Source of the DNA: an uncultured Anaerolineales bacterium
Lineage (GTDB): Bacteria > Chloroflexota > Anaerolineae > UBA7937 > JACPPX01
DNA: 64,000 nucleotides
NCBI GenBank assembly: GCA_964348195.1
Contig: CAYGBX010000003.1
Span: 4,789-68,788 of the forward strand
Direction of reading: 5' to 3'
A program made the position numbers and the translations under genes. Positions 6,281 to 32,520 of the stretch are shown piece after piece. The notes beneath the pieces are model-generated. The model had not been told where the DNA came from, ran no database searches, and was given only the letters and a program-made list of their open reading frames with translations. The stretch's first letter is position 1. Each line of letters opens with the position of its first letter.

Positions 6281-7720
6281 GTGAGAAAGTATCTTGGGTT
6301 GGCGTATCTCCTGGGTGCTGCCGCTGTCCTGGTCCTGGCCGGATGCGCCACCCCCACCCCCGAAGTGATCGAGGTCCCCGGCGCCGAGCGGGTTGTCGAG
6401 GTCGAGGTCCCCGTCGGCGCCCAACTGGTCACCCTGACCGCGCGCTGCAAGGCCAGCCCCCCCTACGAGAACGGGCGCTGCGACAACCTGGTGGCCGCGA
6501 TAGGCGCCGCCAACACGGCATTGGCCCAGGCGGGCGACGAACGTCGCATCGAAGTCAACCCCATCCAGGATGACGCGGATTGGGGCGACTACAAGACCGA
6601 GTTCGAACTCGCCTCCGAGGCAGGTGAGGCGCCCGACATCATCGTCTCCGGCCACGAGCACATCGGCGACTGGGCCACGGCCGGATATCTCGTCGATGTC
6701 ACGGATCTGCTCGCCGACTACGCCGAATTCGACGACGTGATCGACAGCCTGTGGAGCTCGACCGAGTTGAACGGTCGGCGCTGGGGCGTCCCCCAGGATG
6801 CCGAGGCTCGCCCCATGTACTACAGCAAGCCACTCTTGCGCGAGCTGGGTTGGACCGAGGAAGAGATTGAAAGCCTCGACGAGCGCATCGCCGCCGGCGA
6901 GTTCACCTGGCAAGACATGCTCGACACCGCTGCTGAAGCCGTCGAAAAAGGCATCGTCGAGCCTGGCAACGGCTGGTGGCATCGCCCCGCCAACGGCCCC
7001 GACTTCCTGTATTATTACTACGCCGCCGGGGGAGAGGTTGAGCAGGAGGGATTTGACGGGCTCGTCTTCGACCAGGATGCTGCCCTGAAAGTCTACCAGT
7101 TGCTGTACGATGCCACACAGGTGCGCAGTATCCTGCGGCCCGACCGGCTGGACGGCGACTGGCCCGCCTTCAAGGAGGAAACCGCCCGGTTCGACAAAGT
7201 CATGTTCGTGTTTGAGGGGACATGGCGCTGGGCCTTCTGGCACACCAACATCCTCCAGGAGGAGGGCGGCGAGGACTACCTGTTCGAGAACGTGGGCTTC
7301 GCCCCGATCCCGGCAAATGCTGAGGGCACTGGCCAGGCCATCACGCTGACCCACCCGCTGGTGTATATGATCAGCTCGGAGTCCGAACACCCCGACCTGG
7401 CGCTGCTGCTGATCTCCAAGGCGACGGTCAAGGAGCTCAACACCACCTACGCTGTGGATAGCGGCCACCTGGGCATCCTGAAGTCGCAGTCCGACTACGC
7501 ACCTTACACGAGCGCCAAGTTCTTGAGCGCCACACTGCCGTTGCTCGACTTCACCACCTTCCTGCCCAACAGCCCCTACTGGAGCGCCTACTCGGAAGCC
7601 TACTACCTCGGCATCCAGGCCGTGGAGTCTGGCGATCGGACTCCGGAGGCCGCGCTGGACATCGTTGTGACTCAGCTCCAGAACGAGCTCAGCGACAACG
7701 TGATGATCGTCGGCGGATAA
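6281..7720 (+). CDS. ABC transporter extracellular solute-binding lipoprotein (family 1, sugar-type)
   Basis: Signal peptide plus lipobox VLAGC. 479 aa. Followed by two MalF/MalG-type permeases and a MalK-type ATPase. Confidence 0.85.
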   Translation: MRKYLGLAYLLGAAAVLVLAGCATPTPEVIEVPGAERVVEVEVPVGAQLVTLTARCKASPPYENGRCDNLVAAIGAANTALAQAGDERRIEVNPIQDDADWGDYKTEFELASEAGEAPDIIVSGHEHIGDWATAGYLVDVTDLLADYAEFDDVIDSLWSSTELNGRRWGVPQDAEARPMYYSKPLLRELGWTEEEIESLDERIAAGEFTWQDMLDTAAEAVEKGIVEPGNGWWHRPANGPDFLYYYYAAGGEVEQEGFDGLVFDQDAALKVYQLLYDATQVRSILRPDRLDGDWPAFKEETARFDKVMFVFEGTWRWAFWHTNILQEEGGEDYLFENVGFAPIPANAEGTGQAITLTHPLVYMISSESEHPDLALLLISKATVKELNTTYAVDSGHLGILKSQSDYAPYTSAKFLSATLPLLDFTTFLPNSPYWSAYSEAYYLGIQAVESGDRTPEAALDIVVTQLQNELSDNVMIVGG

Positions 7721-22837: not shown

Positions 22838-24046
22838 GTGCCTTGTCCGCACCGTGCAGGCGAGCTCGCCGAGAAGAGGCTCGACGATCTACGACGGGCC
22901 AGCAACCTCGACCATCTGGCCGACAAGACCTTCGACACCTTCCTGCCGGAGGGCATTGGACTCCCTCCCCGAAGGAAGGAGAACCTGCGGCGTGCCTTCC
23001 ATCTGGCCAAGGAGTATGCCGATGAGCCGGCAGGCTGGCTGGTGCTCACCGGCGGCTACGGGTCCGGCAAGACCCATCTCGCAGCGGCCGTCGCCAATCT
23101 GCAGCTAGAGCGAGGAAAGTCGGTTCTCTTCGTGGTGGTTCCAGACCTGCTGGACCACCTCAGAGCCACTTTTGGGCCCGAGAGCGCGGTCCCTTACGAC
23201 GAACGGTTTCAGGCCCTGCGCGAGGCGCCGCTCCTGATCCTCGACGACCTGGGAACCGAGAGCACCACGCCCTGGGCCCAGGAGAAGCTCTACCAGCTCC
23301 TGAATCACAGGCACGTAGCCCAGCTGCCCACGGTGATCACCACCAACCGTCCGCTGGAGAAGATCGAGGCTCGGCTCCGCTCACGCATGGCTGAGCCGGG
23401 GTTCTCTCAGATCTACCACATAGAAGTCCCCGACTTTCGGGGTTCGGGTGTCGGGCCCTGGGAGGATCTGGATACCCTCGGTCTCTACAGCGACAAGACC
23501 TTCGACCGCTTCAACTCGCGCCAGGGAGAACTCCCCTCGGAGGAGGTGCAGAATCTCGGGCGGGCCGTTGAGCTGGCCCGCGGCTACGCTGAGGAGCCGG
23601 AAGGGTGGCTCACCCTCACCGGCGAGTACGGGTGTGGGAAGACACACCTGGCCGCGGCGATCGCCAACCGACGCAAGGACCTGGGAGCTCCGGCCCTGTT
23701 CATCGTGGTGCCGGACCTCCTGGACCATCTGCGAGCCGCCTACGATCCCAAGAGCACGGTTTCCTACGATCAGCTGTTCGAGATCGTTCGCCACGCTCCC
23801 TTCCTAGTCCTTGACGATCTTGGGACCCAGTCGGCTACCCCCTGGGCCCGGGAGAAGCTCTATCAGATCTTCAACCACCGCTATGCTGCCCGGCTTCCCA
23901 CCGTGATCACCATGCAAGAATCCCTGGAGGAGCTGGAACGCGAGGAGCCCCGACTTGCATCGCGCCTGGCCGACGTCGCGGTCTCCACGGTCTATGCCAT
24001 TCTGGCGCCCTCTTACCGTGGGGAACCTCGAAAGACCAAGCGATAG
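22838..24046 (+). CDS. DnaC/DnaI-like helicase loader with two tandem AAA+ modules; true 5' end probably upstream (zinc-ribbon coding sequence at 22763-22850 lacks a canonical start)
   Basis: Walker A GYGSGKTHL (aa 74-80) and GYGCGKTHL (aa 264-270). Walker B LLILDDLG and FLVLDDLG, offset exactly 190 aa. In-frame upstream sequence encodes EVCAICGGLGW...LVPCPH. Confidence 0.8.
   Translation: MPCPHRAGELAEKRLDDLRRASNLDHLADKTFDTFLPEGIGLPPRRKENLRRAFHLAKEYADEPAGWLVLTGGYGSGKTHLAAAVANLQLERGKSVLFVVVPDLLDHLRATFGPESAVPYDERFQALREAPLLILDDLGTESTTPWAQEKLYQLLNHRHVAQLPTVITTNRPLEKIEARLRSRMAEPGFSQIYHIEVPDFRGSGVGPWEDLDTLGLYSDKTFDRFNSRQGELPSEEVQNLGRAVELARGYAEEPEGWLTLTGEYGCGKTHLAAAIANRRKDLGAPALFIVVPDLLDHLRAAYDPKSTVSYDQLFEIVRHAPFLVLDDLGTQSATPWAREKLYQIFNHRYAARLPTVITMQESLEELEREEPRLASRLADVAVSTVYAILAPSYRGEPRKTKR
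22916..24013 (+). repeat. Intragenic tandem duplication (~570 nt unit) of the DnaC-like ATPase module
   Basis: Module 1 is about 22916-23443 and module 2 about 23486-24013. Roughly half of the aligned residues are identical by eye, including DKTFD, PDLLDHLRA, TPWA.EKLYQ and LPTVIT. Confidence 0.8.
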
Positions 24047-24844: not shown

Positions 24845-26161
24845 CTAGGCAACTTCCTCCAGGAGCTGCGTTAGTTGCCGAGCCACACGAGGGTCCTGCT
24901 CCCCCAGCTCACTCAACATCGCGCCATAGTAGCTCTCAAGGAAGGGACTGATCGACCGAGGAGGCACCCCGTAGCTGACAAGGGCCTCGTGGACTCCAGC
25001 GGCCTCCCCCGCCAGGAGGGTCAGATCTCCCAGGGTGAGAGCAGCAGCGACCCTGCCAGCGAGGGCACCGTTCGCTACAGCTAGGTCAGTTGGCAGCATG
25101 CTTGCGGAATCCAGCGCCTCGCGCACCCTGTCCTCCACCTGATGTCGAACCGCCTGGAAGTGTTCTGCGGCTTCCCGACCGTCCGTGGCCGGCGGGGCTG
25201 GTGAGCTTAGGGAACGCTCGACGATGATCCGCTCTACGGCTTCAGGGACCTGGCCAAACTCCTCCCCCAAGAACGAGCCTGGGATACGATCTCGAACCCC
25301 GGGACGCAGATTGAAGATGCGGCCCCCGTAGGTCAGAGGAATCCCCTGCTGCTGGAGAAGGGGCGCGAACGGAAGCAGGTTGGCTGCGGTGTGGAGCTGC
25401 TGCGCGGAGAGGATGGTCAGCCGTGGCCGGCTTCGTGTCAAGGCATGCTTCATCCGGGCCACCGGTACATCGGCGCCCAGATTGACCACATCCCATCCTC
25501 TTCGCCGGAGGAGGTATGAGATGAGGAGAGGGGCAAAAACATGTCTTTCATCTGGGGGACAAGCGACAAGGATGCGACCGCTCCGGGTGGGGTGTGGGGA
25601 AGCGATAATCAGTGCCTCCAGCCGTCGCATTGCCTGCTCGCTCGCAAAGTGCTCCTGCTGAACCGTGGCACGCCCCTCTTGCCAATCCTCCCCCAACATG
25701 GCCAGACCTTCAGATATGATCTGCACAGAGACCGTCTCCGCGGGGTAGACGGCGAAGGCCTGCGCCAGAATCTCGTCCGCGCGGTGCTCCTCAAAGTCCT
25801 TGCAGGCTTGCACCCATGAACGTCGAAGTTCTTCGAGCGCCGGCCCCTCAGCCGAGCCAACGAGAGCCGTACGGATAGAGTCGTAGGCCAGCTCCACCAA
25901 GGGATCCTTGCCCTCTTCCTCCAGGCGACGCCATAGCGCCACCGCTTTGGAGATAATCAGACCCTCCTCCTGCCGGGCGACCAGCCACTTCAAAGTCTGG
26001 ACATCCCGGGGAGAGTAGAGACGGTGTCCGCCCGGAGATCGCTCAGGCATCGGCAGCCCGTACCTCCGCTCCCAGGCACGGACAGTAGCTGGCTTCAACC
26101 CCGTCTCCTTCACCACAGCCTTGAGATTGAAGCTCGCCGCGTCTCCTTCGTCATAGATCAT
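24845..26161 (-). CDS. MerR-family, B12-binding light-responsive transcriptional regulator (CarH/LitR type) with ~130-aa C-terminal extension
   Basis: N-terminal MerR HTH (FNLKAVVKETGLKPATVRAWERRYGL). W-x9-E-H motif (WQEGRATVQQEH). B12-binding Rossmann region ILVACPPDERHVFAPLLISYLLRRRGWDVVNLGADVP (E-x-H). Confidence 0.85.
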   Translation of the reverse strand: MIYDEGDAASFNLKAVVKETGLKPATVRAWERRYGLPMPERSPGGHRLYSPRDVQTLKWLVARQEEGLIISKAVALWRRLEEEGKDPLVELAYDSIRTALVGSAEGPALEELRRSWVQACKDFEEHRADEILAQAFAVYPAETVSVQIISEGLAMLGEDWQEGRATVQQEHFASEQAMRRLEALIIASPHPTRSGRILVACPPDERHVFAPLLISYLLRRRGWDVVNLGADVPVARMKHALTRSRPRLTILSAQQLHTAANLLPFAPLLQQQGIPLTYGGRIFNLRPGVRDRIPGSFLGEEFGQVPEAVERIIVERSLSSPAPPATDGREAAEHFQAVRHQVEDRVREALDSASMLPTDLAVANGALAGRVAAALTLGDLTLLAGEAAGVHEALVSYGVPPRSISPFLESYYGAMLSELGEQDPRVARQLTQLLEEVA

Positions 26162-26326
26162 CGGCTAGACCACCCCTCTCAATCGAGGCCTCGGCATCTA
26201 CGCCACTCTTATACAACGATTGCACACTATTTGTCTAGTTTCACTCGCACCTCCCGGATCCGTGCGCCGTTCCGCTTCTAGCCCCTGAGTCTCCCTCCAG
26301 CGGGGAGGCCTCCTGTACTTACACCG

Positions 26327-26360
26327 AATCTCGACAAGAACCTGGACAACATGTTGACAA
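26327..26360 (+). promoter_or_regulatory. Candidate CarH-type operator: three direct repeats matching nAnnTnnACAn
   Basis: aatctcgACAa (26327-37), aacctggACAa (26339-49), catgttgACAa (26350-60). Each has A at position 2, T at position 5 and ACA at positions 8-10. The element overlaps the fasciclin-gene promoter. Confidence 0.6.
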
Positions 26361-26372
26361 TGCCTGTATAAT
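26343..26372 (+). promoter_or_regulatory. Candidate sigma-70 promoter of the fasciclin gene
   Basis: TGGACA (26343-48), 18-nt spacer, TATAAT (26367-72). RBS AAAGGAGGGAG lies ahead of the ATG at 26411. Confidence 0.5.
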
Positions 26373-27517: not shown

Positions 27518-28282
27518 CTAGTCCGATCGCACTCCCGTACGGTCCCCCACACTGCGTCTCACGGCCACCGCGGCCGCCAGTGCAGCCAGTCCAGCAGCGA
27601 CCCAACTGGCATTGCCGACAACCGCCACGCTGACATTCCGAACCCCAATGCCGGCCAGGGCCCACACCAGAACCATGGAGAAGGCGAAGTCGGATCGCGC
27701 GAGCGCTAGGATCCAGCCGATCGTCAGCGCTACAGCCACCATGAAGACGGTCCAGACTTCGGGGTCGATCCCCAGTCCACCCCAGCCCAAGACGACAAAA
27801 ACCACGGCAGCGTTGGCGATCGTGGCAACACTGATCCAGCCAAGGTAGATGCTTACGGGAAGGTGCACCAGCAATCGCTCCCCAAGCGGGACCGATTCCC
27901 TTCCTACTCCCAGCCTCAGGTAGGTGGCGATGAGCAGTCCCAGAAGCGCGACCATCGCCACAAGTGTGAGGGGGAACAACTCATAGTGCCAAAGGAGAAT
28001 CCACGCGATGTTAGCCAGCCCGCTCATGGCAAACCAGTCTCTGCTTCGATGCAGCCGCAGGTTCTGTCGCTGGGCCGGTAGCGCCTGATACACGGCGAAA
28101 GCCACCAGCCCCAGATAGATCAGACCCCAAATGACGAACACGTAGTTTGCCGGCGTGAAATAGACGTCAAAGCGATTGGATATCTCCCCCGTTGTCTGTC
28201 CGTTGATCGGCAGCGCATTGGCCAGACCGTTTACCACCAACGTGGCCAGGACAGATACCACTACGGCAACACTTCCCATCAT
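27518..28282 (-). CDS. TspO/MBR-related tryptophan-rich membrane protein (long form)
   Basis: Start MMGSVAVVV after GGGAGGG. Five or more TM segments. Blocks NALPINGQTTGEISNRFDVYFTPANYVFVIWGLIYL and NIAWILLWHYE resemble actinobacterial/cyanobacterial TspO-related proteins. The track ORF start at 28537 overlaps the upstream gene. Confidence 0.55.
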   Translation of the reverse strand: MMGSVAVVVSVLATLVVNGLANALPINGQTTGEISNRFDVYFTPANYVFVIWGLIYLGLVAFAVYQALPAQRQNLRLHRSRDWFAMSGLANIAWILLWHYELFPLTLVAMVALLGLLIATYLRLGVGRESVPLGERLLVHLPVSIYLGWISVATIANAAVVFVVLGWGGLGIDPEVWTVFMVAVALTIGWILALARSDFAFSMVLVWALAGIGVRNVSVAVVGNASWVAAGLAALAAAVAVRRSVGDRTGVRSD

Positions 28283-28319: not shown

Positions 28320-29819
28320 TCATGCTCCTTCCAGTCGAACTGCCTCCTCTGCTGCAAGGCTACCTGCTCGTCGCACCAGATTCCGCAGCAGGCCATCGAA
28401 GATGAGGCTGTGAATAGGATAGAGCAGAACCCAATATGCCAGGCCAAGTAGGCCTTTCGGCGCGTAGATCGCCGTCTGGTGGAGAACCGCCTGCCCCTCC
28501 GAAACAGGAGCGATGGCGAACTCCAACCACGCCTCACCCGGCAACTTCATGTCAGCCCTCAGTCGCAGTCGCCGGTTCGGCTCCAGCTCTTCAACCGTCC
28601 AGAAGTCTACCGTGTCCCCCACCCGCAAGCTTCTCATCGTTCCACGCCTCGCACGCAGGCCAACTCCTCCCAGGACCCGATCGATCGCGCCGCGCAGTCG
28701 CCACACCCAGTTCATATAGAGCCAGCCTCGATCGCCACCGAGCTCCGAGAGAGCTTTGAATACCCTGGCGGCAGACACCTCAGCCGTGCGCTTCCGGTGC
28801 TCTAGAATCATCCCCCTCCGCCATGCAAACTTCACGTGAAGACTGTCCGAACCACGTAGCTCTGCCATGTCCCGGTCGACCGCTGCCATACGCAACTCCC
28901 GCAGCGCAGATCGGACGGCGGTCGTATAGTCCATCGGTTCAATATGCGGGAATAATCGGCGTGCCGAATCCTCCCTAACGATCACCTCATTGCGCAAACC
29001 CTCGATCAAGGGCTGCGCAACATTCGCAGAAATCGGAGTCACTAGGTGCACCCAATAGGAAGACAGGCGCGGAGTCAGGACCGGCACCGGAAGCATGGCA
29101 CGGCGCAGACCCCGCACCTCCGCGTACCGCGTCATCATCTCTGCGTAGGTGAGAATCTCGTCTCCACCGATCTCAATGATCCGTCCCTCGCTCCGCGGCT
29201 GGGTCAGCGCCTGTTCGAGGTAATCCAGACAGTCCTCGATGGCGATGGGTTGGATCCGGGTGTATACCCACCGTGGGCAGATCATCACCGGGAGATGCTC
29301 AGTGAGGTATCGCACCATCTCGAAAGAGAGGCTACCGGCCCCTACGACGACTGCAGCCCTGAATTCGGTGACCGCGACGCCGCCCTGTCGCAGTGCTTCG
29401 CCTGTCTTCTGGCGCGACTCCAAGTGAGGCGAGAGGCTTTCCTCAGGGTTCCCGAGGCCACCAAGGTAGATGATGCGCCGTACCGCCCCCCGCTTTGCGG
29501 CCAGGCCAAAATGCCCAGCGGCCTCCACATCCGTCCGGTGGAACTGACTACCAGCCATCATGCCATGGATCAAGTAGTAGGCTGTGTGAATTCCGGCTAG
29601 GGCAGGCTTGAGAGTCTCCGGGCGAAGTACATCACCCCTCACAACCTCTACGCGGTCTCTCCAGGGTTGATCTCTGAGACCTGACGGGTCCCTGACCATG
29701 ACACGCACGTCGTATTCGGATTGCAGCAACCGAGGAATGAGTCTGCTCCCGATGTATCCCGTGGCACCGGTGACCAGGATCCGCTTCCTGCTGTTCGTCC
29801 CCGCTCCGGCTTCGCTCAT
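28320..29819 (-). CDS. NAD(P)-binding SDR-family protein with C-terminal DUF2867-like domain
   Basis: RILVTGATGYIGSRLIPRLL Rossmann motif, about 300-aa NmrA/SDR-like part plus a 170-aa C-terminal domain. Its ATG overlaps the uvdE stop (ATGA). Confidence 0.75.
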   Translation of the reverse strand: MSEAGAGTNSRKRILVTGATGYIGSRLIPRLLQSEYDVRVMVRDPSGLRDQPWRDRVEVVRGDVLRPETLKPALAGIHTAYYLIHGMMAGSQFHRTDVEAAGHFGLAAKRGAVRRIIYLGGLGNPEESLSPHLESRQKTGEALRQGGVAVTEFRAAVVVGAGSLSFEMVRYLTEHLPVMICPRWVYTRIQPIAIEDCLDYLEQALTQPRSEGRIIEIGGDEILTYAEMMTRYAEVRGLRRAMLPVPVLTPRLSSYWVHLVTPISANVAQPLIEGLRNEVIVREDSARRLFPHIEPMDYTTAVRSALRELRMAAVDRDMAELRGSDSLHVKFAWRRGMILEHRKRTAEVSAARVFKALSELGGDRGWLYMNWVWRLRGAIDRVLGGVGLRARRGTMRSLRVGDTVDFWTVEELEPNRRLRLRADMKLPGEAWLEFAIAPVSEGQAVLHQTAIYAPKGLLGLAYWVLLYPIHSLIFDGLLRNLVRRAGSLAAEEAVRLEGA

Positions 29820-30847
29820 TTCAAAGAGGCTCGCTTCTCGAAGTCTGCCGACCTCTCCCCGAAGCCGAACAACACAGCAAGGTCGGGAGCGTAGCGGATC
29901 AGATCCTCCCGCAGCTGCAGCAGGGCGAGGTCCTTGGCCTTGGCTTCCAGCATGACATCCGGCCCAAGCGGGCCTAGCGGCCGATAGAACTCAACAAAGG
30001 CGAAGGGGTCGACAAACTCGGCATGGGCCCTCCAGGAGCGCTGGGTGATCCCCGACTTCCTGCCCTCTCGAAATCCCCAGTCGGTGCGCGGTGAGGAGTA
30101 GTGCAGTTTTGGATGTGCATTCCAATCATCCCAGGTCTCCAAGCATGCCTGAGCGGCTTCGACCATCGGGATGTCGTCCGGATCGTAGCAGCGGTGGTGG
30201 TGCCCATCGAAAACCACCCGGATTCCGGTCTGGCGATGGAGGCGCAGCACGTCAGCGACGCCAAAGCGGCTGTCGTCGTTTTCCACCACCAGCCGTCGGC
30301 GAGCCACCGCGGACAAACAGTCGAGTCGGCGCGCAAAGCGCTCCAACGCGTCGCTCCAGTCACCATAGACTCCACCGACGTGAGTATTCACCACCGCGTC
30401 GTCGTCCAGGCCCATCGCCTCCAGGATTTCAGCCTGAACTTCGATGTCGGCCATCGACCGCTGTGCCAGCTCATCGTCGGGTGTGTTCAGCACAACGAAC
30501 TGTCCCGGGTGGAAAGACATTCGAACGCCCTGTTCCCGAATCGCTGCACCGATCAAATCTAGGCGCCGGCGGCTTTCTTCGACCTGGCCGTGGAACTGTG
30601 GATGATCCGGATGGGTTGCGTAGGGAGCCAATGCCGAGGCCATGCGATACATGCCGATCCCCTGGTCATGCAGGTACTCCAGGACACGGCTGAGGTGATC
30701 CAGGCTGACCCGCAGGCTGGGGCCGCTTGACCAGCGTCGCGAATCGTGGGAGCGCAAACCCGGCCGACCCAGGACCTTCACGGCAAAGCCCAGCCGGGGT
30801 CGCCGATCTGTCTCTCCCGTCGGCTTCTGCGTATCAAAGGGATTCAC
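29816..30847 (-). CDS. uvdE: UV damage endonuclease
   Basis: RLGFAVKVLG...GIGMYRMASALAPYATHP...SFHPGQFVVLN...NTHVGG, the TIM-barrel UvdE/UvsE blocks. GTG start. Confidence 0.85.
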   Translation of the reverse strand: MNPFDTQKPTGETDRRPRLGFAVKVLGRPGLRSHDSRRWSSGPSLRVSLDHLSRVLEYLHDQGIGMYRMASALAPYATHPDHPQFHGQVEESRRRLDLIGAAIREQGVRMSFHPGQFVVLNTPDDELAQRSMADIEVQAEILEAMGLDDDAVVNTHVGGVYGDWSDALERFARRLDCLSAVARRRLVVENDDSRFGVADVLRLHRQTGIRVVFDGHHHRCYDPDDIPMVEAAQACLETWDDWNAHPKLHYSSPRTDWGFREGRKSGITQRSWRAHAEFVDPFAFVEFYRPLGPLGPDVMLEAKAKDLALLQLREDLIRYAPDLAVLFGFGERSADFEKRASLK

Positions 30848-31021: not shown

Positions 31022-31695
31022 CTAGTCCGCATTCCGCATCACGCGATCTACGAGGGAGCGATCTTGCAGAAACGCTCCGCGGAGGGCCTGGGTGTGCATG
31101 GTGCCTCTCCGCTGCTCGACCCCCCGCATTGCCGTGCACAGGTGAAATCCCTCCACGACCACTGCAACCCCGAGCGGATCCAAACGATCGTCAATGAAAT
31201 CCGCGATCTCAGCCGTCATGCGCTCCTGAACCTGCAGTCGACGGGAGAATGCATCCACAATCCGCGGGATCTTGCTCAATCCCACCAGCCGCCCCTGCGG
31301 GATGTACGCCACATGCGCCTTGCCGTAGAAGGGCAGCAAGTGATGCTCGCATGTGCTGTAGAAGTCGAGGTCTGCTACCGTCACGGGCTCATCGTAGTCC
31401 TCATGGAAAACCGCACCGTTGATGATCGCGTCCAGGTCCACATCGTATCCGCTGGTGATCTCTCGCAACATGCTCGCAACCCGCCGGGGGGATCCCTAAG
31501 GCCCTCACGTTGCGGGTCCTCGCCTAGCTCGACGAGCAGAGTGTGCACCGCTTCAATCATCTCCAGTGGGGGCAACTGCTCGCCCCGAACGGCCATCACC
31601 CGTTCGAGCCTTCCTCTCCCAGCCAATTCCCGCCCGACGACGAGATCAGGCATAGCATCGCTGGCCCCTTCAAGGTTGAGAGCGCTCGAAGTCAT
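31022..31695 (-). pseudogene. folE: GTP cyclohydrolase I, reading frame broken by a 1-nt deletion in a homopolymer (or sequencing error)
   Basis: ATG at 31695 with GGGAGG 8 nt upstream gives ...LVELGEDPQREGLRDPP. The rest (RRVASMLREITSGY...YSTCEHHLLPFYGKAHVAYIP...) continues in the -1 frame. The join is at the G6 run 31486-31491. Total length is 674 nt, which is 225 codons minus 1 nt. Confidence 0.85.
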
Positions 31696-31732
31696 GTCTA
31701 GACCTCCCTATCTAGCACTCTTGCCGGTGGAC

Positions 31733-31761
31733 ACAATATCAGATATCGCGCGAAGTGTCAA
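31733..31761 (-). promoter_or_regulatory. Candidate sigma-70 promoter of the folE-uvdE-SDR-tspO-like operon
   Basis: Minus strand: TTGACA (31761-31756), 17-nt spacer, extended -10 TGaTATTGT (31741-31733). The -35 hexamer lies inside operator repeat 3. Confidence 0.55.
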
Positions 31762-31787
31762 CATCTTGTCTAGATAGTGTACAAGGT
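31755..31787 (-). promoter_or_regulatory. Second candidate CarH-type operator (three exactly 11-bp-spaced direct repeats on the minus strand)
   Basis: Minus strand reads accttgtACAc tatctagACAa gatgttgACAc. Repeats 2 and 3 fit nAnnTnnACAn perfectly and are 9/11 identical to repeats 1 and 3 of the 26327-26360 element. Confidence 0.6.
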
Positions 31788-32215: not shown

Positions 32216-32467
32216 GTGAGAGCGTTCCTATTCCTTATCTTCATCGCCGGTTCGCTCGCGGTTGCATTCAAATGGGAGGACGTCCCGTCCGCCCTGCAAC
32301 CATACCTTCTGCCGGTGGCTGCAGTATGGGTGTTCGCCTTCCTCCTCATCATGATGGGTTGGGGCCGCTCGGGTCAGGCCGTAGCATCTACCCGTTCCGG
32401 CTACTATCCCACTCCTAAGTACCGGCGAACGGAGAAGCCCTTGCCACCCCAAGCCCGCCAGTCCTAA
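32216..32467 (+). CDS. Small hypothetical membrane protein
   Basis: GTG start after GGAAGGGAGG. Two hydrophobic segments, 83 aa. Followed by a strong hairpin. Confidence 0.4.
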   Translation: MRAFLFLIFIAGSLAVAFKWEDVPSALQPYLLPVAAVWVFAFLLIMMGWGRSGQAVASTRSGYYPTPKYRRTEKPLPPQARQS

Positions 32468-32487
32468 GTGGCAGACCGGCGGTAGAA

Positions 32488-32520
32488 GCAGAGCGTCGGG
32501 CAGAAGGCCCGACGCTCTGC
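32488..32520. terminator. Bidirectional terminator hairpin between convergent genes
   Basis: Perfect 14-bp stem gcagagcgtcgggc / gcccgacgctctgc with a 5-nt loop agaag. Weak T-rich tails on both strands. Confidence 0.6.

Follow-up and report, generated by a model that had tools for sequence, protein, structure and literature searches.

What controls the promoter that precedes folE in this uncultured Chloroflexota genome, and are the three short repeats in which its −35 element is embedded the operator of the B12 photoreceptor encoded 5.4 kb away? Among B12 photoreceptors, CarH serves as the reference and is in wide optogenetic use, but its operators have been experimentally defined in few lineages, almost only at carotenoid promoters. 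Published CarH operators consist of 11-bp repeats of the form nAnnTnnACAn, with a looser form nnnnTnnACAn, and tolerate degenerate pseudo-repeats; there are three repeats in Thermus, one of them covering the −35 element, and four in Bacillus megaterium (PMC8156234, PMC9304148). Here, we analyzed a 64-kb window, the whole stretch of contig DNA under study, against a comparison set of 83 loci encoding relatives of the regulator (770 kb). We consider it likely that the folE-promoter site is a CarH/LitR-type operator of three tandem 11-bp repeats, the promoter-proximal one holding the −35 element of a sigma-A promoter, and that it serves the adjacent B12 photoreceptor.

Direct reading of the minus strand from 31787 to 31755 gave ACCTTGTACAC, TATCTAGACAA and GATGTTGACAC in succession, with ACA triplets at 31780-31778, 31769-31767 and 31758-31756 (plus-strand TGT starts at 31778, 31767 and 31756) and a period of exactly 11 bp, just as the first-pass annotation of this DNA had described. 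The second repeat, DR2 (TATCTAGACAA, 31766-31776), and the third, DR3 (GATGTTGACAC, 31755-31765), fit nAnnTnnACAn at all five defined positions (5/5 each), in agreement with the earlier statement that both are perfect, whereas DR1 (ACCTTGTACAC, 31777-31787) retains the T and the ACA, has C for A at position 2, and fits at 4/5 positions, but it conforms fully to the looser nnnnTnnACAn. Scored with a position weight matrix (PWM) of the regulator family, DR2 was the best of the three repeats (14.6) and close to the commonest repeats of the relatives, such as TATCTTGACAA, while DR3 was moderate (6.6) and DR1 weak (3.4).

DR3 includes TTGACA (31761-31756), the −35 element of a predicted promoter that continues through a 17-nt spacer (31755-31739) into an extended −10 element, TG-a-TATTGT (31733-31741), found by consensus scan 17 nt 3′ of the −35 and made up of TG at 31741-31740 and TATTGT at 31738-31733. 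A neutral promoter scan of 24-34 kb scored TTGACA-17-TATTGT at 10/12, with the TG, and returned just two promoter-like sites, this one and the companion element discussed below, thereby recovering independently the promoter that had been proposed here. The site thus combines 11-bp direct-repeat periodicity, the repeat consensus (for DR1 in its loose form only) and overlap with a predicted −35, all of which are features of CarH operators. Reading the site as an RNA element was dropped because Rfam and tRNA scans of the window gave no matches. Transcription is predicted to start at about 31725-31728, upstream of a ribosome-binding site GGGAGG (31708-31703) and the ATG (31695-31693) of the first folE ORF on the minus strand. 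Both elements of the folE start claimed earlier are therefore present, but ATG 31695 is one of two plausible starts, giving a longer N-terminus than that of FolE in the related locus L025, with Met35 as the alternative, and the gene is frameshifted. On the other side of the site, an 83-aa hydrophobic putative membrane ORF (32216-32467, plus strand, RBS AGGGAGG) diverges from folE, with ~410 nt of apparently non-coding DNA between it and the operator, and a strong GC-rich hairpin (32486-32520) lies just past the rsmE stop.

Four genes follow the promoter on the minus strand. The first, folE (31022-31695), encodes GTP cyclohydrolase I in two overlapping ORFs separated by a 1-nt frameshift at a C6 run (31486-31491), where one added C would restore a continuous folE, ...EGLRDPPRRVASMLREITSGYD...; the frameshift is either a homopolymer assembly error or the mark of a pseudogene, and because of it this first gene of the operon may be defective. 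Located 174 nt 3′ of folE, uvsE (29816-30847) encodes a UV damage endonuclease (TIGR00629, 160 bits against a cutoff of 124), and its stop is overlapped by 4 nt by the start of a gene for an SDR/NmrA-like protein with a DUF2867 domain (28320-29819). The last putative operon gene (about 27518-28282) encodes a multi-pass conserved membrane protein without a Pfam or NCBIfam family, and an assignment as TspO-like was dropped because no such match was found. Within the folE-uvsE gap, the promoter scan and the PWM turned up neither another promoter nor a terminator or repeat site, and no internal promoter, terminator or repeat site was detected throughout the four-gene stretch. The promoter would drive folE, and its transcript would most likely extend through uvsE and the genes for the SDR-DUF2867 and membrane proteins; co-transcription of all four is the simplest model that we infer, with the 174-nt gap between folE and uvsE leaving doubt. 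Such an output would be physiologically sensible: UvsE nicks UV photoproducts, and the pterin/folate pathway, which GTP cyclohydrolase I feeds, provides photolyases with their antenna cofactors.

The presence of two matching composite sites in one window had been judged unlikely to be a coincidence, and the counts agree. Three tandem copies of nAnnTnnACAn with at most two mismatches occurred twice in the 64-kb window against 0.01 expected, and ACA-N8-ACA-N8-ACA once against 0.10 expected. With a PWM built from 62 repeats of related loci only, the window sequences being excluded, exactly three sites in 64 kb exceeded 20 bits, namely 26339-26371 on the plus strand (24.7) and 31787-31755 and 26241-26209 on the minus strand (24.5 and 20.1), all three clustered around the CarH-like gene, whereas the best score in 30 shuffled windows that keep local composition (200-bp blocks) was 12.9. 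As far as the motif is concerned, the PWM is in part circular, because the published consensus served to pick its training sites; the tests of site location, phasing and periodicity are independent of this circularity.

The highest-scoring of the three sites belongs to the companion operator at the fasciclin promoter (26327-26372, plus strand), which was recovered by repeat pattern, promoter scan and PWM. It contains a repeat at 26327-26337, one extra base, a repeat at 26339-26349 that holds the −35 TGGACA, a further repeat at 26350-26360 and a pseudo-repeat at 26361-26371 (TGCCTGTATAA) that overlaps the −10 TATAAT (26367-26372), and its promoter, TGGACA-18-TATAAT, scored 11/12 in the neutral scan. 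Two repeats of the folE site are 9/11 identical to repeats of the 26327-26360 element (tatctagacaa versus aatctcgacaa and gatgttgacac versus catgttgacaa), which agrees with the earlier comparison; calling the two sites near-identical was an overstatement, since the resemblance covers just two of the three repeats. The first two perfect repeats of the companion are 12 bp apart (12+11 spacing), the in-phase triple being 26339-26371. The third operator-like site, AAACTAGACAA ATAGTGTGCAA TCGTTGTATAA (26209-26241, minus strand), which the earlier finding had not mentioned, scored 20.1 against the shuffle maximum of 12.9 and ends 47 nt 5′ of the regulator ATG, suggesting autoregulation of the regulator gene. 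Autoregulatory sites are common among relatives of the regulator, and the third site would complete the local regulon of the adjacent regulator, a putative regulon that these sites support.

The presumed regulator is a 438-aa protein (24845-26161, minus strand) with a MerR HTH, a B12-binding_2 domain, a B12-binding domain (Pfam PF13411/PF00376, PF02607 and PF02310) and a ~150-aa globin-like C-terminal domain. It shows the domain order of class I CarH/LitR, an N-terminal MerR winged-helix followed by a four-helix bundle and a Rossmann B12-binding domain; its predicted fold matches 5C8D/5C8E, and its best PDB sequence matches are the Thermus thermophilus CarH entries 3WHP and 5C8D. We aligned 30 homologues, which share 46-53% identity and come without exception from Anaerolineae/Chloroflexota-type assemblies, and found the Wx9EH motif (W160, E170 and H171) and the lower-axial His207 invariant in 30 family members, the window protein included. 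The DNA-binding domain is identical to that of T. thermophilus CarH (TtCarH) at 30/66 positions (45%), and at 21/31 across the helix-turn-helix and wing. The NCBIfam CarH equivalog NF052513 was still the best-scoring model, although the 134 bits reached fall below its cutoff of 400. At the level of sequence, the regulator is thus a distant, longer CarH relative and not an equivalog, and the proposal that a B12 photoreceptor is encoded beside these sites holds at that level, with the MerR HTH, both B12 domains, Wx9EH and the lower-axial His all in place.

The same repeats recur throughout the loci of the regulator's relatives. Strict triple repeats numbered 24 in the 770 kb against about 0.8 in shuffles, and 113 matches reached at least 16 bits with the PWM against 1-5 in shuffles. 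A periodicity test free of any motif model agreed: over the 150 bp 5′ of each of 70 regulator genes, ACA-ACA occurred at exactly 11 bp 29 times against 3.3 expected (about 9-fold) and at 22 bp nine times against 2.9 expected, whereas distances of 10 or 12 bp were not enriched. The best −35 was exactly in phase with a repeat in 41/51 strong sites of the related loci, part of this phasing being built in because the repeat core TnnACA resembles the −35 consensus, and the −35 fell in the third repeat, as at folE, in 11 related sites, for example those of the conserved membrane protein in L076 and an SDR in L067. Genes 3′ of the related sites included the regulator itself (about 24 loci), divergent crtI/crtB pairs, heliorhodopsin, DegV, SDR-DUF2867 and the membrane protein, the crtI/crtB targets tying the regulator subfamily to the classical CarH role; no crt, heliorhodopsin or DegV gene was found in the window.

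Genes of the window itself also recur beside related regulators. SDR-DUF2867 adjoins them in four loci (L012, L070, L071 and L076), as does fasciclin in four, and the membrane protein lies near CarH-like regulators in eight (L012, L024, L027, L029, L054, L071, L076 and L079), with repeats preceding its gene in L071 and L076. In L025, folE and the regulator gene are divergently oriented, with TATCTTGACAA AATTTGTTCAC in the folE promoter, and in L072, uvsE comes after crtI as the last gene of an operon headed by the repeat pair CATGTGTACAA ATCATATACAA. The locus of the closest homologue, L005 (53% identity), lacks a strict triple repeat and shares no neighbours with the window, and when the regulator alone was used to scan contigs, all loci recovered were distant ones of Acidobacteriota/Planctomycetota. 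The local regulon of the adjacent B12 photoreceptor that the first-pass annotation had put forward is supported, as a putative one, by every computational test run, including the 11-bp enrichment, the −35 phasing, the recurring genes and the third site.

The strongest array in the related loci, four to five in-phase repeats at 7486-7551 of L029 (plus strand, PWM 40.9), precedes a heliorhodopsin gene (start near 7598; PF18761, E 3e-101) that is followed by a CarH-like regulator and the conserved membrane protein, an arrangement that would be B12-photoreceptor control of heliorhodopsin. Triple repeats also precede DegV genes in L007 (7480-7555) and L073 (3023-3066), and in L007 (complete genome CP070818) the operon reads DegV-DUF3159-DUF1295-long CarH-epimerase/DUF1731, with a short 327-aa CarH divergent from it.

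Which protein reads the folE-promoter site is a separate matter from whether it is an operator. Since 327-aa and 440-aa CarH-like genes lie side by side around one triple repeat in L007, and short-form regulators in L056, L058, L075, L080 and L084 use the same repeat type, the motif alone cannot assign a site to one paralogue. That the operator is real but bound by another CarH/LitR paralogue whose gene lies elsewhere in the genome, such as a short CarH of ~300-330 aa, is nonetheless unlikely, given that a search of the 64-kb window for a second CarH-like gene found none, that the single gene present has its own upstream site, and that long-form regulators are preceded by the same repeats in many loci.

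[quoted passage not shown] Because repeat 3 covers the −35, RNA polymerase with sigma-A would be blocked from that element. UV-to-green light would then cleave the Co-C bond, the oligomer would fall apart and the operon would be transcribed, the expected output in the light being GTP cyclohydrolase I, for pterin/folate precursors, and the UV-damage endonuclease. The binding, oligomeric state and light response in this scheme are inferred by homology, and the transcription start is a predicted one. An activator mechanism was rejected, because MerR-type activators sit on 19-20-nt spacers, whereas here the spacer has 17 nt and the repeats cover the −35 and the DNA 5′ of it.

The regulator carries ~150 conserved C-terminal residues (window 24845-25300, minus strand) without a Pfam match. 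An AlphaFold model of the regulator (pLDDT 86) predicts for residues about 105-438 a fold whose best superpositions are with the photocobilins SasPcob and AbPcob (8J2W/8J2X/8J2Y), with a TM by target of 0.81-0.83 over 331-345 columns that span the B12 module and the globin-like domain, and in this predicted structure the globin-like helices pack onto the B12 module. The family profile likewise aligns with AbPcob well into the globin domain. Trp389, nearly invariant in the family, seems to correspond to the AbPcob pocket Trp and is Gly in the window protein, making bilin binding by the window protein doubtful; as for equivalents of the SasPcob pocket residues Asp270/Trp296, Trp389 aligns with the AbPcob pocket Trp and the Asp has no reliable placement. 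The extra C-terminal domain could also alter oligomerisation of the regulator. In photocobilins, B12 and biliverdin allow both green and red light to be sensed (PMC10979010), and the MerR-B12-photoglobin architecture has been catalogued computationally, Chloroflexi included, by authors who state that none has been studied experimentally (PMC8717448); we found no functional study of this architecture in the literature searched.

These features bear on the signal. A reading in which the adjacent regulator binds the site, with a signal that is not simply UV-green light through AdoCbl because a bilin bound by the globin-like domain adds red-light control, or because the protein reports cobalamin availability or redox state, would draw on the predicted superposition over both the B12 and the globin domains (8J2W/8J2X), on the alignment with AbPcob, on the green and red responses of photocobilins and on the catalogued architecture. 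We regard it as quite improbable, since the family Trp apparently aligned with the pocket Trp is replaced by Gly in the window protein and the AdoCbl motifs of the regulator are intact, so that the classical light response is the simplest expectation. As for the reading in which there is no operator and the three TnnACA units arose by chance in an AT-rich promoter or represent tandem −35-like or UP-like elements, the repeat core does overlap the −35 consensus and promoter regions are AT-rich in this 62% GC genome, but it is very hard to sustain when composition-preserving shuffles never exceed 12.9 against 24.5 observed, the only three passing sites in 64 kb all cluster around the CarH-like gene and exact 11-bp phasing is a property of the whole family. 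The site upstream of folE is real and well supported as a predicted CarH-type operator, as judged from the DNA and its comparison with relatives.

Among the closest known systems, the locus recalls T. thermophilus CarH (LitR; 5C8E) in its MerR-family regulator with Wx9EH and a lower-axial His, and dark repression would be expected (PMC8156234, PMC9304148). Unlike T. thermophilus CarH, its host phylum is Chloroflexota (Anaerolineae-like), its target is folE-uvsE-SDR-membrane protein and not carotenoid genes, and its regulator is ~150 aa longer with a globin-like domain; in addition, the window regulator reads W-Q where TtCarH has, next to the motif Trp, the His of its bis-His light state. The sites also resemble the CarH operators of Bacillus megaterium and Myxococcales, in which true repeats combine with degenerate pseudo-repeats in variable number and overlap the −35 and/or −10 (PMC9304148), and the companion (26339-26371) and third site (26241-26209) share the DR-DR-pseudo-repeat(−10) design found there, although the operators of those lineages control carotenoid clusters, and the known oligomeric states there are a tetramer or two dimers.

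In its targets, the locus resembles the light regulons of Pseudomonas class II LitR (PplR/PmlR), in which folE is light-induced together with DNA-repair and photoprotective genes (PMC9758184). Class II LitR, however, has no B12-binding Rossmann domain and acts together with LOV photoreceptors. Its operators are of another type and its mechanism is different, and the passages of PMC9758184 consulted do not name uvsE as light-inducible. A link of UvsE with CarH/LitR was likewise not found in the literature searched. Compared with the photocobilins SasPcob (8J2W) and AbPcob (8J2Y), the regulator has the same predicted pairing of a B12 domain and a C-terminal globin-like domain; the photocobilins characterised so far either stand alone or carry a fused diguanylate cyclase, and they control enzymes, whereas the window protein has a MerR DNA-binding domain and is missing one conserved pocket Trp.

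CarH operator logic thereby extends to an uncultured Chloroflexota lineage, where it putatively wires a UV-damage endonuclease and the first pterin/folate enzyme to light. Light-induced folE is already described for Pseudomonas class II LitR (PMC9758184). The interest of the locus rests on its lineage, on its UV-repair and folate targets and on the regulator's uncharacterised MerR-photocobilin architecture. The window sites offer ready DNA probes for the long, photoglobin-containing CarH subfamily, and the relatives add testable links from B12 photoreception to heliorhodopsin, to DegV and to two conserved proteins without an annotated function. More tentatively, the three window sites and the dozens in related loci may be the first defined DNA targets, and the first regulon, of MerR-photocobilin transcription factors; such repressors, carrying B12 and bilin-type (photoglobin) chromophores, might place UV-repair, folate, carotenoid and even heliorhodopsin genes of Anaerolineae under two-colour light control via a CarH-style repeat operator, a possibility to which we give less than even weight.

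Beyond the regulator gene, the window also encodes a 402-aa protein (22838-24046, plus strand) composed of two tandem IstB/DnaC-like AAA+ modules, which Pfam matched in two stretches and whose halves are visibly alike.
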